The notes beneath the pieces are model-generated. The model saw nothing but the letters and a program-made list of their open reading frames with translations. It searched no databases and was not told the origin of the DNA. Positions 2,002 through 64,000 of a DNA stretch of 64,000 nucleotides are shown here, piece after piece; the first letter of the stretch is position 1; each line of letters starts with the position of its first letter. The position numbers were made by a program, and so were the translations under genes. Source of the stretch: Thermoproteota archaeon (GTDB taxonomy: Archaea; Asgardarchaeota; Jordiarchaeia; Jordiarchaeales; Freyrarchaeaceae); assembly GCA_029258835.1 (NCBI GenBank), contig JAPDJY010000039.1, positions 64,001 to 128,000 on the forward strand, in the 5' to 3' direction.

Positions 2002-3109
2002 GTGCAGCTTAAAGAGTATGTTCAAGACGTGTATACTTGTAATAGGACGAGGTGCGGCTACAGCCCCCTTTAATGAAGGGGGCGGCTAATGTATTGAAGA
2101 ATGCCCTTTCTTTAAGGAATTAAGGTTGGAACCATACTCAAGTAGGGGAAAAATGCTAATAGCAAGAGGCATACTTGAAGGTATCATCAAGCCAAGCGAG
2201 AGTCTGCTTAGAATAATTACTGCTTGCACTACATGTGGCTATTGCCTTTACAGGTGTGCTCTTCATAACATAGACGTAATTGTTTCGTTGAGGGCTGAGC
2301 TAGTCCGTGCAGGATACGTTGACCCCGCCCATAAAACGGCTGCTGAAAACATTCTTTCTTTTGGAAATCCCTATTCTAGGGGATTTAAGAAGGATCTTGC
2401 TCTTCCTAGGAAGGCGGAAACAATTTTTTTTGCTGGATGCAGTTACTTCCACCTAGTCCCTGAGAAGCTTAGAGTAATAGAGGAAATTCTGCTGAAGATG
2501 AGAAATGTAGGAAGCCTTGGTGTAAGTGAGCCATGCTGTGGGAACGTTATGCTTTCGACCGGCCAAATCGATGCTTTCACGAGTTACGGTGAAAGGGTTG
2601 TCAAAATGTTTAGAGAGGCAGGTGTTGAACGTATAATTACTGCGTGTCCGGGATGCTATGAGACGCTTTACCAAGAGTACCCGAAGTTTTTCGATTTTGA
2701 CGTTGAAGTCCAGCATATAACCCAGTTTTTAGCAGATGAAATAGAGAAAGGAAAAGTGAAAGTGAAACGTTTAGATGGAGTAGCTACTTTTCATGACCCA
2801 TGCCACCTTGCAAGGTACGCAGGGATAACCGAGGAGCCACGCTTAATTATCGAGGCTACTGGTATGGAAATTGCTGAAATGGAACATAATAGGATGAACA
2901 CTATGTGTTGTGGTGGAGGGGGAGGGGCGCCCCTCGCCCATCCTAGGATTACAGCTAAAATTGCAGAAAAGAGGGTTACAGAAGCTATTAATTCGGGAGC
3001 AGGAACTATAGTAACGGCGTGTCCATTATGCGAGTACATGTTAAGTAGAGGTATTAGACGGAGGAAAAGCACGCTTAAGGTACTAGATATAACGGAGTTG
3101 GTTAAATGA
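2002..3109 (+). CDS. Fe-S/CCG-domain oxidoreductase subunit (GlcF/HdrD-like); spliced join(2002..2061,2090..3109), 359 aa
   Basis: GTG start 4 nt after the glcD-like stop; removing 2062-2089 gives CNRTRCGYCIEECP in frame with CTTCGYCLYRC, CCG, ACPGC, HDPCHL, CCGGGGG and ACPLC. Confidence 0.88.
2062..2089 (+). other. BHB-type intron (28 nt) in the Fe-S oxidoreductase mRNA
   Basis: GGUGC-GGCU-AC|A-GCCCCCUU(UAAUG)AAGGGGGC-GGCU-AA|U-GUAUU: outer helix, 4-bp central helix, two 3-nt bulges, 8-bp intron stem; contains an in-frame TAA. Confidence 0.88.
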
Positions 3110-5424: not shown

Positions 5425-5545
5425 CTTTCAATGCTGCCGTCACTTTTCTTGCTGTAAGGTTTCTTATGGCGAAACTATATAAATACTTTCACAATGAAAG
5501 TAAAGAAACATGGTCATTCTGGGGGGAAATCCTAGAGAAAATTAG

Positions 5546-5632
5546 TGGGCGGGCCAGGATTTGAACCTGGGACCTCCACGGCGTCAACTTCACCCTGATC
5601 GTGTGGCGTCATAACCGCTAGACTACCCGCCC
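5546..5632 (-). tRNA. tRNA-Val(GAC) with a 14-nt intron at 30/31 (5589..5602)
   Basis: Cloverleaf GGGCGGG...CCACG-UUGACGC-CGUGG...UUCAAAU...CCCGCCCA (73 nt) after removing ACGAUCAGGGUGAA; central helix CGCC/GGUG. Confidence 0.9.
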
Positions 5633-14962: not shown

Positions 14963-16426
14963 CTAGCCCTTCACTACTCCAATAGGGCGCAACTTGGCTA
15001 CCAGCGAGGCAATCCCAACCTTGTGGGAGACCTCGGCTACTACGTCTACATCTTTATATGCCTCAGGTGCTTCTTCGCTTACTACTACCATGCTGGCGGC
15101 TTGAACAAGAATTCCTGATTTTTGAAGGTCATCCTTAACCTTCTCTCCCCAAAACTTTTTCTTCGCCCCAGCTCTGCTAAGCCGTCTACCAGCACCATGA
15201 GCGGTCGAGCCAAAGCTCAGTTCCATAGACTCTTTCCTACCTCTCAACACATAGCTGGCAGTCCCCATGGTTCCAGGAATAAGAACAGGTTGACCTATAT
15301 CTCTGTATTTTTGAGGGACTGCAGGGTGTCCTGGAGGAAACGCCCTAGTGGCACCTTTCCTATGGACACAAACAGTTTTTTCTGTACCGTCTACACGGTG
15401 CCGTTCAAACTTAGCGATATTATGGGCCACATCATAGACAAGGTGAATTCCAAGATCCTCCGGGGATGAATTAAAGACCTTGCCAAAGGACTCACGTACC
15501 CAATGCATTATGCATTGCCTATTTGCCCACGCGAAATTAGCGGCAGAAGCCATTGCCGCTAGGTAGTCCTCACCTTCTCTACTTTTACCTGGAACTGCTG
15601 CCAGCTCTCTATCAGGAAGGGAGATGCCATATTTTCTTACAGCATGCTCCATAACTTTTAAGTAATCAGAACAAACTTGATGGCCAAGACCTCTAGATCC
15701 CGTATGGATCATAATTGTAACTTGCCCTTCAAACAGCCCTAAGCATTTCGCTGCTTCACCGTCATAAATACGCTCAACGTATTGTATTTCTAAGAAGTGA
15801 TTGCCACTACCTAAAGTGCCAAGTTGCGGTGCACCTCTACTTTTCGCTTTAGAGGAAACCTTGCCTGCATCTGCCCCTTTAAGACATCCTTCCTCCTCAC
15901 AATAAAACTTATCTTCATCCCAACCGAAGCCTTGATCAACTGCCCAGCTTACGCCGGATTCTAACACTTCATCCAGTTCAGAATGAGATATTCGAATTTT
16001 ACCTTCAGACCCTACTCCGCTAGGTACTTCCTTAAATAGGACGCTTAAAAGGCCTTTGAGTTTAGGAGTAACATCGTCTTTTAAAAGATCCGTTCTAAGA
16101 AGACGCACACCACAGTTAATATCGTATCCTACGCCGCCGGGAGACACTACGCCGCCCTCTTCGAAATCGATGGCGGCAACGCCCCCTATTGGAAAGCCAT
16201 ACCCTTGATGAGCATCAGGTAAAGCGATCGAATGCTTTTGGATTCCAGGGAGGCATGCAACGTTCATGGCTTGAATAAGTGTTTGGTCCTTTTTCATACC
16301 TTCTAGCAACATTTCATTTGCAAAAACTTTAGTAGGTACGCGCATACACTTCTTAGTACCTTTTGGTATCTCCCAAATGAAATTACTTACCTTCTTTAGA
16401 GGAATATTCGCGCTCAAGAACCTCAT
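14963..16426 (-). CDS. rtcB: RNA-splicing ligase RtcB
   Basis: LPDAHQGYGFPIGG, GYDINCG, GSGNHFLE, HTGSRG, HNIAK, HRKGAT, STAHGAGR, EEAPEAYKD. Confidence 0.97.
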   Translation of the reverse strand: MRFLSANIPLKKVSNFIWEIPKGTKKCMRVPTKVFANEMLLEGMKKDQTLIQAMNVACLPGIQKHSIALPDAHQGYGFPIGGVAAIDFEEGGVVSPGGVGYDINCGVRLLRTDLLKDDVTPKLKGLLSVLFKEVPSGVGSEGKIRISHSELDEVLESGVSWAVDQGFGWDEDKFYCEEEGCLKGADAGKVSSKAKSRGAPQLGTLGSGNHFLEIQYVERIYDGEAAKCLGLFEGQVTIMIHTGSRGLGHQVCSDYLKVMEHAVRKYGISLPDRELAAVPGKSREGEDYLAAMASAANFAWANRQCIMHWVRESFGKVFNSSPEDLGIHLVYDVAHNIAKFERHRVDGTEKTVCVHRKGATRAFPPGHPAVPQKYRDIGQPVLIPGTMGTASYVLRGRKESMELSFGSTAHGAGRRLSRAGAKKKFWGEKVKDDLQKSGILVQAASMVVVSEEAPEAYKDVDVVAEVSHKVGIASLVAKLRPIGVVKG

Positions 16427-23182: not shown

Positions 23183-25607
23183 ATGGCCTTGTCAAGAGAC
23201 GAGAGGTTTGTCTTATGGTTTGAAGAGATCAGAAAAGACGATGTACCGATAGTAGGTGGAAAATGCGCGAATCTAGGTGAGTTAACAGCTGAAGTTAAAG
23301 TCCCAGTTCCACCAGGATTCGCTGTGACCACTCATGCATATAAGCAGTTCATAGAAACCACGAAAATAAAGGATAAGATTTTCAAGAAACTTGAAGGTTT
23401 AGACGTAAAAGATATGAAAATGCTTGAAAACGCATCGGCAGAAATAAGAAAGTTAATTGAATCAACCCCTGTACCCGAAGAAATACAGTCTGCCATCTTA
23501 AGTGCATACGATGAACTCTCTAAACGGGCGGGGAAAAATCCCTTTGTAGCCGTCCGCTCTAGCGCCTCGGCAGAGGACAGGTTTTCCAGCCCCTCAGCTG
23601 CCGGGCGCCAGTTTCGCTGGACAACAGGATACATTCTTAAACGTTACTAGAGACGAGCTGGTAAGTAGTGTTAGAAGATGCTGGAGTAGCCTTTTTACGC
23701 CAAGGGCAATAGCATATAGGGAAGAGAAGGGTTTTTCACATGAAGAAGTATCCATAGGCGTAGCTATCCAAGAGATGGTTGACGCTAAAGCAGCAGGGGT
23801 AATGTTTACTATACATCCAGTTACAGGTGAAAGAAATAAAATTCTTATTGAAGCCAATTGGGGGCTAGGAGAAGCCGTAGTAAGTGGCGCCGTAACGCCA
23901 GATACCTATGTCGTAGATAAAGAAACATTTGAGATCATCGACAAACATATTGTAACTAAAAAAGTCGAGTATGTAAGGGACCCAAAAACCGGGAAGACAG
24001 TTCACGCAGAAGTCCCCCCGGAAAGACAGAATATTCCTGCTTTAACAGACGAGGAAATAAAGGCGCTTGCAAAATATGCACTTCAAATAGAACAACATTA
24101 TAGAACACCACAGGATATAGAGTGGGCAGTTGATAAAGATGGGAGAATATTCATACTTCAAGCAAGACCTGAGACGGTCCATTCTGCAGGGGGAATTCAA
24201 GCGCAAGTATTAGAGGCTGCTGAGGAAAGAGAAGTGCTAGTAAGAGGGCTGCCAGTATCCCCAGGCCTAGGAGCAGGAAAAGTTAAAGTTATCTTAGATG
24301 CTAAGGACATAGACAAAGTTAAGGAAGGAGACATTTTAGTTACAAAAATGACCACTCCTGATTGGGTTCCAGCCATGAAAAAGGCAGCGGCAATAGTGAC
24401 TGATGAAGGGGGCTACACGTGCCATGCAGCAATAGTTTCACGTGAACTAGGTGTACCATGCATTGTTGGTACTGGAAATGCAACAGAAGTTCTTGCGAAT
24501 GTGGAGGAAGTAACCGTTGACGGAGGAAAGGGACTAGTCTACCGTGGAATAATTAAAGAAGCAGCTGAAGAGGTGGTGCCTACAGCTGCGGTAACTTATG
24601 CGATAGTGCCGACAGCAACTAAGATATATGTTAACCTTTCAATTCCAGAGATCGCTGATAAAGTTGCAAGGGAAACAAGAGCAGATGGTGTAGGGCTTCT
24701 AAGAGCAGAACACATGATGGTTACCATAGGAAAGCATCCACGCAAACTCATTGAGGAGGGTGGAGACCAGCTTATGGTGGATTCCTTTGCGGAGGGCATC
24801 AGGAAAGTTGCCGAAGCGTTTTATCCTGGTCCTGTCGTATATAGGTTCCTAGACTTTAAGCCTGACGAATTCCTAGCCCTAGAGGGAGGAGAAAAGTATG
24901 AGTTAGAGGCAGGGCATGTAGGACCAAATCCAATGATAGGCTACAGGGGACAATACAGATACGTTAAGGAGCCAGACATATTCAGGCTAGAGTGTAAAGC
25001 AATAAGAAAGGTTAGAGATGAATTTGGCCTTAAAAATGTTTGGGTAATGTTGCCTTTCGTTAGAGACATAGAGATCTTCCGGAAAGTGAAGGAGATAATG
25101 AAGCAGGAGGGGCTGGATCCCGAGAAAGATCCTGACTTTAAACTCTGGATAATGGTGGAGGTCCCAAGTAGCGTCCTGTTAATTGACAAGTTCTGTGAAG
25201 AAGGGATAAACGGAGTGTCTTTTGGCACAAACGACCTAACAATGCTGATACTTGGCGTAGACCGTAACGATGCTTCGGTACAGGAGATATACGATGAACG
25301 AAACCTAGCAGTCCTCAGGGCAATAGCTTACACAATAAAAATATGCAAAAAGTACGGGGTGACAACGTCTATTTGTGGGCAAGCACCCAGCGTTTACCCG
25401 GACTACTTAGAATTCCTAGTTAGGATGGGAGCAACATCAATAAGCGTAAACCCGGACGCTGTACAACGTACACGTGAAATGGTTGCAAGAATAGAGCAGA
25501 AGATACTGATGGAGAAAGCATTAGGAGTTAAAACAAGAATCAAAGTTGGAAAGAATTTCATAGAAGAAGTCGAGTTCTGGAAAAAAGTAGATGACAATTT
25601 AGAATAA
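23183..25607 (+). CDS. ppsA: Phosphoenolpyruvate synthase; spliced join(23183..23578,23598..25607), 801 aa
   Basis: VGGKCANLGEL; after splicing [52 protein letters not shown]. Confidence 0.95.
23579..23597 (+). other. BHB-type intron (19 nt) in ppsA mRNA
   Basis: CGGCA-GAGG-AC|A-GGUU(UUCC)AGCC-CCUC-AG|C-UGCCG: perfect Watson-Crick outer and central helices. Confidence 0.9.
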
Positions 25608-36904: not shown

Positions 36905-37458
36905 TCAACCTAACTTCCGCTTAATGATCTCTTTAACCAAAAGGTTAAATGCAGCTTCCACGTTTTCACCGTTCTTCGCAGAGGTTTCAAAAAAAGAAGC
37001 GTTTATTTCTTTCGCGTATCTTTTGCCGTCCTCTGTCCGCACCTCCCTAAGGTTAGAGAGGTCAACCTTATTTCCAATAACCACCGTGACAGGTTCCTCC
37101 TTAACATTCTTTAACAATTCCTTACGCCAATTTTCAAGGTTGTCAAAGGTAGAGCGTCGTGTTATATCGTAAACTAGCATCGCCCCGACTGCACCTTGAT
37201 AAAACGTACTACGTACGTGTTTGAAGTGTGGCTGCCCACCTAAGTCCCAAAGCACCAACTTAGCAGTAAGATCGCCTAAGTTAATAATTTTTGAGAAGAT
37301 ATCTATACCTTTAACCCGCTGAGTAGCACGAGCTACCAGCGTATAGTCTTCTTGTAGTCGGCCATAAACCTACCGCTAACATACTTTGATATTAAACTAG
37401 TTTTTCCCACGGCACCATCACCTGCAAGGATCACCTTATAAACAAGTTCCCGTGACAA
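36905..37458 (-). CDS. Rab/Ras-like small GTPase; spliced join(37458..37343,37310..36905), 173 aa
   Basis: TTG start after AAGGGGG; YKVILAGDGAVGKTSL, YKKTI/GIDIF restored by splicing, WDLGGQ, GNKVD, ETSAK. Confidence 0.9.
37311..37342 (-). other. BHB/BHL-type intron (32 nt) in the small GTPase mRNA
   Basis: GACU-AU|A-CGCUG GUAGC(UCGU)GCUAC U CAGCG-GGUU-AA|A; 10-bp intron stem, in-frame TAG, weak outer helix. Confidence 0.85.
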
Positions 37459-63044: not shown

Positions 63045-63458
63045 ATGAACAAGGAAGTTTTAGAAGAGTTCAAAGAAACGCTTGATGAATTAAAAGAATA
63101 CTCGAAGATGGGGATACCGATAATAGTCGAAGGGCAAAAGGACGAAGCAAGCCTTAGGGAGATAGGGATCACCGGGCCAATAATAACGATTTCAGGGATG
63201 AAATTATTGGAAATAGCAGAAATGCTTGAAAAAGAGGAAATCATAGTCCTCACAGACTTCGACAGAAGAGGAGATAAAATGGCATTAACAATCCTCTCCT
63301 ACAGGGTAGGAGACAGTACACTCACAAAGTACTTCAGAAGTAAAATAAGAAAGTTAAAAGCACACATAACACCATGCGTGGAGGGGTTCGCTAAAACATA
63401 CCTCAAAGCATGTAGAATGGAAAAAACATACAAGAACCCGTTTAGAAGGTTAAATTAG
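63045..63458 (+). CDS. Small TOPRIM-domain protein
   Basis: IIVEGQKD..SL, VLTDFDRRG; usual upstream neighbour of archaeal dnaG. Confidence 0.88.
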   Translation: MNKEVLEEFKETLDELKEYSKMGIPIIVEGQKDEASLREIGITGPIITISGMKLLEIAEMLEKEEIIVLTDFDRRGDKMALTILSYRVGDSTLTKYFRSKIRKLKAHITPCVEGFAKTYLKACRMEKTYKNPFRRLN

Positions 63459-63571
63459 GAACAAAAAATAGGAGGCTTTCATCTAAAAGAGAGTTAAGAG
63501 CACTAGTTAGTTACCGTCCACTCAATCATTTCCCAATAGGGTTATGTGTTAAATTGGGAGGTGAAGTTCAC

Positions 63572-64000
63572 ATGGCTAATCGAAATGAAGTTGGAACAAT
63601 AAAGTACATTATAAAGGCGAAGATAGAAGTAAACGGGGTGGTCGAGAAGCCTGACGTTATAGGCGCGATTTTTGGTCAAGTACGTTGAGCTCACCGCTCA
63701 CGTAGACCAATTAGAGGGGCTTCTCGGCTCTGAATTAGACCTTCGAGAGTTGCAACGTACGGGTAGGATAGGTAGGATAAGAGCGAACATTGAGACGCAC
63801 GGTGGGAAATCTGTAGGTGAGATTATTATTCCATCAAGTTTGGATAAGGTTGAAACAGCCATCCTTGCTGCGGCGCTTGAAACTATTGATAGAATTGGGC
63901 CGTGTAGTGCGAAGGTAAGTTTTGAGGCAATTGAAGACGTGAGGGAGAGTAAACGCAAGAAGATTATTGAGAGAGCGGTAGAAATTCTTAGGAGGTGGCC
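63572..64000 (+). CDS. dnaG: Archaeal DnaG (primase-like, exosome-associated), partial; spliced join(63572..63679,63711..>64000)
   Basis: [47 protein letters not shown]...[25 protein letters not shown]. Confidence 0.93.
63680..63710 (+). other. BHB-type intron (31 nt) in dnaG mRNA
   Basis: GGUC-AA|G-UACG U UGAGC(UCACC)GCUCA CGUA-GACC-AA|U; perfect central helix, 9-bp intron stem, in-frame TGA. Confidence 0.9.

Follow-up and report, generated by a model that had tools for sequence, protein, structure and literature searches.

How a full-length DnaG protein can be produced from a gene whose reading frame closes after 38 codons is the question raised by the dnaG locus at the end of the 64,000-nt stretch of DNA analysed here (hereafter the window, C1:64001-128000 of the metagenome-assembled genome of a Jordarchaeales-type Asgard archaeon, 2.72 Mb in 91 contigs, 94.7% complete and with an estimated contamination of 6%). 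Translation from ATG 63572 proceeds through a CAA codon into GTA CGT and ends at TGA 63686-63688, and another frame remains open from 63672 through the end of the window and past it. Deletion of 31 nt (63680-63710) joins the two into a single open frame that encodes a DnaG of 395 amino acids (aa) with the in-frame junction GQ^LEG (here and below, the caret marks the junction). A sequence-only reading of this DNA had stated that the unspliced gene ends after 38 codons and that removal of precisely these nucleotides restores the conserved N-terminus; both statements hold, the stop being the same TGA and the fused protein being colinear with its homologues across the conserved AIFGQ-x-EGLL motif. 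It had further proposed that the interruption represents a bulge-helix-bulge (BHB) intron. The observations described below make it very probable that the insert is indeed an archaeal BHB intron located within the dnaG coding sequence and spliced by EndA and RtcB.

Both halves of the gene are under selection at the protein level. Exon 2 alone matches the NCBIfam model NF003108 ‘DNA primase DnaG’ with 460.7 bits (cut-off 300), and the match, which covers profile positions 28-273, begins at exon-2 residue 2, so that the missing N-terminal positions are those encoded by exon 1; the latter aligns to the N-termini of intronless DnaG homologues. A Pfam scan limited to the 96 exon-2 residues that lie inside the window gave no match. 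Between exon 1 and its orthologue in the same-family genome G002, 16 codon differences are synonymous and one is non-synonymous, which indicates purifying selection on exon 1 as a coding sequence. Initiation is assigned to exon 1, not to the annotated internal TTG, because the Shine-Dalgarno-like GGAGGTGA precedes ATG 63572. In a tblastn search of the whole assembly, the fused protein matches this locus alone, the next-best match being a 66-residue Toprim similarity (E = 0.016). Directly 5′ of dnaG, there is a gene for a stand-alone 137-aa Toprim-domain protein (window 63045-63458, +; Pfam PF01751, E = 5.9e-06); the same small Toprim gene precedes dnaG in every family relative examined, and a PRS2/AAA ATPase gene follows dnaG there.

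Table 1. Elements of the interrupted dnaG gene and of the predicted BHB structure (positions in the window)
Feature	Position	Strand	Remarks
Shine-Dalgarno-like GGAGGTGA	63557-63564	+	7 nt 5′ of the dnaG start codon; read from the sequence
dnaG exon 1	63572-63679	+	36 codons, MANRNEVG...VIGAIFGQ; last codon CAA 63677-63679
Weak outer helix, 5′ strand UUUU	63669-63672	+	pairs with AGAG 63713-63716; manual parse, outer = 4
U/U mismatch between outer and central helix	63673 and 63712	+	sequence reading
Central 4-bp helix, 5′ strand GGUC	63674-63677	+	in exon 1: Gly codon and first base of the Gln codon
5′ bulge AAG	63678-63680	+	predicted cut 63679/63680; unpaired in MFE and centroid folds
BHB intron (predicted)	63680-63710	+	31 nt; contains the in-frame stop TGA 63686-63688
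Intron hairpin	63681-63704	+	inner helix UACGU/ACGUA, bulged U, GAGC/GCUC, loop UCACC; 5+4 bp
Central helix, 3′ strand GACC	63705-63708	+	in the intron
3′ bulge AAU	63709-63711	+	predicted cut 63710/63711
Weak outer helix, 3′ strand AGAG	63713-63716	+	in exon 2
dnaG exon 2	63711-64000, on past the window to C1:128787	+	359 codons; stop C1:128788-128790

The anatomy of the insert (Table 1) agrees with the earlier description in two further respects: the central helix GGUC/GACC, said to be perfect, forms 4 of 4 pairs, and the limits given for the element, 63669-63716, coincide with the outermost positions of the weak helix UUUU/AGAG. For the cbf5 intron, the rule has been given that EndA cuts between residues two and three of each bulge (PMC2738675). 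Applied to dnaG, this rule puts the cuts after 63679 and after 63710, that is, exactly at the borders of the 31 nt whose removal restores the frame. When the position of a 31-nt insert is scanned, the offset found in dnaG yields 4/4 central, 5 inner and 4 outer pairs, compared with 4/2/1 for the runner-up. With the offset fixed, only 39 of 100,000 shuffles of the region 63660-63725 reach 4/4 central pairs combined with four or more inner ones; across the window, such structures occur at the 31-nt length at a rate of 5e-4 per position, and the 66-nt region itself folds with z = -3.1. The mirror image of this layout, in which the 5′ strand would carry its bulge ahead of the central helix, was rejected because it misfits both this sequence and the tRNA 37/38 geometry. 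No other copy of the intron or its flanks was detected in the genome, and the idea that the insert is a mobile element was dropped because the intron and its flanks are unique in the genome rather than a repeated element.

As modelled, the 5′ site is a textbook one, whereas the 3′ site and the outer helix correspond to a relaxed BHB. The MFE fold pairs U63672-U63673 with A63709-A63710 and thereby absorbs the 3′ bulge, which is open only in the BHB conformer; the 5′ bulge, in contrast, is open in the MFE fold. By calculation, the plain hairpin (-17.5 kcal/mol) exceeds the open BHB core (-15.7 kcal/mol) in stability by 1.8 kcal/mol, and addition of the outer helix destabilises the structure (-12.3 vs -15.7 kcal/mol). 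The 3′ site is classified as relaxed, not textbook, because the U-run offers an alternative pairing partner to the two A residues in its bulge. The outer helix consists of four U:A/U:G pairs that follow a mismatch, and its first position is paired in 0 of 12 distinct sequences. Relaxed BHB motifs have been described for cbf5 and for hosts with an (alpha-beta)2 EndA (PMC2738675, PMC5829648).

The insert is shared by the family. Nine other loci of the same family were compared (L003, L004 and L096-L101 by name, with two pairs identical); they come from the panel genomes G001 and G002 and from six public contigs (L096-L101) that were reached via truncated proteins, L095 being the G002 contig again. 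All nine carry an insert at the same codon, and orthologues at 76-80% identity retain it there. The inserts are 31, 32 or 34 nt long, and excision gives GQ^LEG in every case. Because 32 nt belongs to a different frame class than 31 and 34 nt, no common read-through or fixed frameshift fits this set of lengths, whereas excision does. The helices show compensatory changes. A point against the BHB model is that, in the closest relatives, only three of the four central pairs form (GGCC/GGCA, with a G.A mismatch); compared with them, the genome studied here has one central pair changed from C:G to U:A and the G.A mismatch repaired to G:C. Position 5 of the inner helix is U:A, U:G or C:G within the family, and the top of the hairpin varies in length, both strands changing together, with 3-nt length changes among relatives.

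A survey of 251 Asgard genomes extends this picture; the N-terminal region was read for 89 dnaG loci, which represent 24 of the 28 coded families. At the site GQ^xEG, inserts are present in 3 of 3 loci of the family to which this genome belongs (f1; 31-34 nt), in both loci of f4 (32 nt) and in 11 of 16 loci of f9 (31-40 nt), and in f12 all 10 loci have an insert of 28-31 nt that lies 13 nt downstream, at TEGL^LG. In the remaining 20 families read, among them f2 of the same order (0/6), no sampled member has the insert. In 24 of the 26 inserts, the top-scoring canonical BHB is found exactly where splicing restores the consensus protein; the remaining two have 3 of 4 central pairs, and the rule of the second bulge base still works for them. 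Among the 12 distinct sequences with an insert at the GQ site, central pair 3, which joins the wobble base of the Gly codon to an intron base, is paired in all 12, as U:A (this genome), C:G, A:U, G:C or U:G, and inner pairs 1-3 likewise form in every one of the 12, each of them in three pair types. The structure of the insert, rather than its sequence, is conserved through compensatory changes.

The junction predicted from the interrupted genes is found as such in intronless ones. Intronless f9 species of the same coded genera as insert carriers (g10, g32) read GGN CAA^ACN GAA, which is the exact predicted spliced junction. Within these two genera the f9 dnaG intron is polymorphic (L041, L045-L047, L050, L052, L091), the inserts of the carriers being 37-40 nt long; the coexistence of carriers and congeners with a clean junction implies recent precise loss or gain. 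In f12 (L026, L027, L055-L062), the intron is in phase 1 of a Leu codon, with the central helix GCCU/GGGY and lengths of 28, 29 and 31 nt. The Leu residue at the junction of the gene studied here, where Thr is usual as the earlier reading had remarked, is a natural variant because the intronless dnaG genes of f17, f19 and f11 read GQLEG or GQLDG.

The enzymes that such splicing would call for are encoded in the genome. Two EndA-family genes (190 and 308 aa) were identified through PF01974 matches at C1:12233-12481 and C6:39796, both above the cut-off, and the former shares a contig with dnaG, upstream of the window. There is a single RtcB gene (PF01139, E = 1.6e-182; C1:78966-80273, window 14966-16273, −). 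The EndA of Asgard archaea has been reported to be an (alpha-beta)2-type enzyme with an L1 loop, a feature associated with a broad substrate range (PMC5829648). From these elements, a pathway of cleavage, ligation and translation can be proposed. The dnaG gene would be transcribed with the 31-nt insert included, and the end of exon 1 (GGUC AA) and the 3′ end of the intron (GACC AA) would form the 4-bp central helix between two 3-nt bulges, with the inner helix supplied by the intron hairpin. A heteromeric splicing endonuclease composed of the two EndA paralogs would cut after the second base of each bulge, RtcB would ligate the exons to give CAA^UUA (Gln-Leu) and hence the message for the 395-aa DnaG, and the intron would probably be freed as a circle; from the unspliced mRNA, only a 38-residue peptide would be expected. 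Part of dnaG is contained in one metatranscriptome (X16), the contigs of which cover just positions 778-1005 and 1346-1770 of locus L001, the junction being at 679^711; X16 was assessed together with two sister RNA runs and a DNA run of the same sample, and no contig bridges 679^711, the DNA contig ending at 670.

The interrupted gene admits other explanations that have to be weighed against splicing. One is that the annotated form is the one expressed: an internal start in the exon-2 frame, TTG 63672, from which an open frame does exist, would yield a truncated DnaG of ~372 aa, with the intron read in the exon-2 frame and exon 1 being a separate 38-residue peptide or unused. This is how the gene is annotated in public databases, with the 372-aa product, identical or at 99% identity, found on at least eight contigs from NCBI, Logan, ENA and JGI; all 20 protein records in the six closest clusters are similarly truncated at the N-terminus (348-375 aa), and in a collection of 5.8 billion proteins, queried with exon 2 and followed by cluster look-up, only these 348-375-aa forms and no spliced form of ~395 aa were found. 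Nevertheless, a break of this kind would lie within the most conserved N-terminal motif, AIFGQ^xEGLL, and the only good Shine-Dalgarno sequence belongs to exon 1, which is under strong purifying selection, as indicated by the 16:1 ratio. The internal starts vary among relatives (hence the products of 348 to 375 aa) and none is conserved, and expression of the annotated form leaves unexplained both the compensatory changes in the hairpin and the central helix and the exact intronless junction in the f9 congeners. We therefore regard expression from the internal start as unlikely. Bypass of the 31 nt by the ribosome, as in phage T4 gene 60, is less likely still. Take-off from CAA 63677-63679 and landing at CAA 63708-63710, aided by the hairpin and the nearby stop, would fit the features that the two cases share, namely a short untranslated gap in an open frame, a hairpin, a stop close by and, for this genome alone, the same codon ahead of either junction; in the gene studied here, a stable hairpin fills the gap and the stop lies two codons past take-off. 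Unlike the BHB geometry, however, the matching of these codons is not kept in relatives, where exon 2 is preceded by AAA (G002) or UAA (f4). The BHB geometry and the cut rule hold across all lineages, and the covariation touches the central helix that defines the EndA sites. We know of no such translational bypass in archaea.

That the locus is a pseudogene or an artefact of assembly or sequencing is the least probable of these explanations, to the point of being nearly negligible. The premature stop after 38 codons and the origin of the sequence in a metagenome-assembled genome with 6% contamination are what would be expected under such an explanation, but the other 359 codons show no break and clearly exceed the cut-off of the DnaG family, the assembly holds no second dnaG, and the orthologues at 76-80% identity that share the insert codon speak against it. 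The same DNA is present in several independent assemblies, and DNA runs from 16 studies contain the gene. The sequence-only reading had itself considered pseudogenisation unlikely, and this judgement is borne out by a rest of the gene that is intact at 460 bits against the archaeal DnaG model. Two checks that it had named, whether dnaG is single-copy and whether relatives have GQLEG with or without the insert, gave one copy in the 94.7%-complete assembly, homologous BHB inserts at the same codon and, in addition, insert-free GQLEG. The interpretation put forward in the sequence-only reading is supported.

Three other genes in the window show a comparable interruption. In a gene for an Fe-S oxidoreductase-like protein, a 28-nt insert (window 2062-2089, +) forms a canonical BHB, GGCT/GGCT with 4 of 4 pairs, an inner helix of 9 bp and the bulges ACA and AAT; once it is excised, a Cys-rich motif, ...CNRTRCGYCIEECP..., is restored within a single frame. 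The ppsA gene (PEP synthase) has a 19-nt insert (window 23579-23597, +) with the BHB GAGG/CCTC, 4 of 4 central and 4 inner pairs, the excision of which leaves one open frame through the conserved ...SSASAEDLPGASFAGQQDTF... stretch. In a gene for a Rab-like small GTPase, excision of a 32-nt insert (window 37311-37342, −; BHB GACT/GGTT, 4 of 4 central and 6 inner pairs) brings the G1 motif (GDGAVGKT) into a single frame with switch I and G3 (WDLGGQ). In addition, the only tRNA that ARAGORN predicts in the 64 kb is a ‘tRNA-Asp’ of 88 nt (window 5545-5632, −), the anticodon of which, atc, is odd. Probably, a tRNA with an intron has been misparsed here; this would match the heavily interrupted tRNA genes of Jordiarchaeia, for which more than two intervening sequences per gene have been reported (bioRxiv 10.64898/2026.10.13.758758).

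The size of the intron population in the genome as a whole was addressed by a scan for canonical BHB cores that join two long open frames only by excision. The scan recovers dnaG, ppsA and the Rab-like gene, and yields 6322 matches, compared with 6400 and 6394 in two controls whose 3′ site had been moved one base to either side, that is, no excess; stricter filters gave no excess either. Because ordinary gene boundaries swamp the signal, this outcome neither supports nor contradicts a large intron population. The chances seem evenly divided that the dnaG intron belongs to a large population of obligatory mRNA introns of this Asgard lineage, all removed by EndA and RtcB and four of them in the 64-kb window, and that, in several Asgard families, the conserved GQ^TEG site has been kept or repeatedly hit, some species having undergone precise losses.

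Among known systems, the closest counterpart is the BHB intron in the cbf5 pre-mRNA of Crenarchaeota (Desulfurococcales, Sulfolobales) (Watanabe 2002, Yoshinari 2006, Yokobori 2009; PMC2738675). The two introns have in common a short insert inside a coding sequence, a somewhat relaxed BHB, splice sites between the second and third bulge residues, a host with a heteromeric (alpha-beta)2 EndA, and patchy presence and absence among related lineages. They differ in the gene and the host, cbf5 encoding a pseudouridine synthase of Thermoproteota and dnaG a Toprim protein that belongs to the exosome and primase family of archaea, in Asgard archaea; in the two insertion sites 13 nt apart that dnaG, unlike cbf5, has in different Asgard families; and in the evidence, cDNA and in vitro cleavage having demonstrated cbf5 splicing, whereas dnaG splicing is deduced. 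The dnaG intron is accordingly of the cbf5 kind, in a new gene and a new phylum.

The BHB introns of pre-tRNAs (hBHBh′, and the relaxed forms HBh′ and hBH) resemble the dnaG intron in the 4-bp helix, the two 3-nt bulges, the inner hairpin and similar sizes, and both are presumed to depend on the same EndA and RtcB machinery. In dnaG, however, the context is an mRNA open reading frame, so that the junction must also preserve the frame, and the outer helix is built from codons (the Ile-Phe U-run and the Leu-Glu AGAG) and is weak. The preprint on tRNA introns in Asgard archaea (bioRxiv 10.64898/2026.10.13.758758) makes no mention of mRNA, cbf5 or dnaG. According to a review (PMC10485636), the HVO_1309 mRNA of Haloferax volcanii (PMC7714728) is likewise an archaeal mRNA substrate of the tRNA splicing endonuclease, although in a different phylum, with an alpha2-type enzyme and in an unrelated gene. 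In the literature searched, the archaeal mRNAs processed by the tRNA endonuclease are cbf5, within the coding sequence, and one Haloferax mRNA, and the review adds that further archaeal cases probably remain to be found (PMC10485636). No description of a dnaG intron was found in the literature searched.

If the proposed splicing takes place, an essential single-copy core gene of Asgard archaea would be untranslatable without it, and endonuclease-mediated mRNA splicing would be extended to a further gene and phylum. Every public annotation of dnaG in the family is N-terminally truncated, which implies that standard gene calling mis-annotates genes of this type; this may have consequences for single-copy marker sets and for phylogenies. 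DnaG has been described as an RNA-binding subunit of the archaeal exosome (PMC7667871); dependence of DnaG synthesis on an RNA-processing enzyme may, speculatively, constitute a regulatory link. Should the larger population of obligatory mRNA introns prove real, splicing of protein-coding genes by a non-spliceosomal route would be routine in the closest prokaryotic relatives of eukaryotes.
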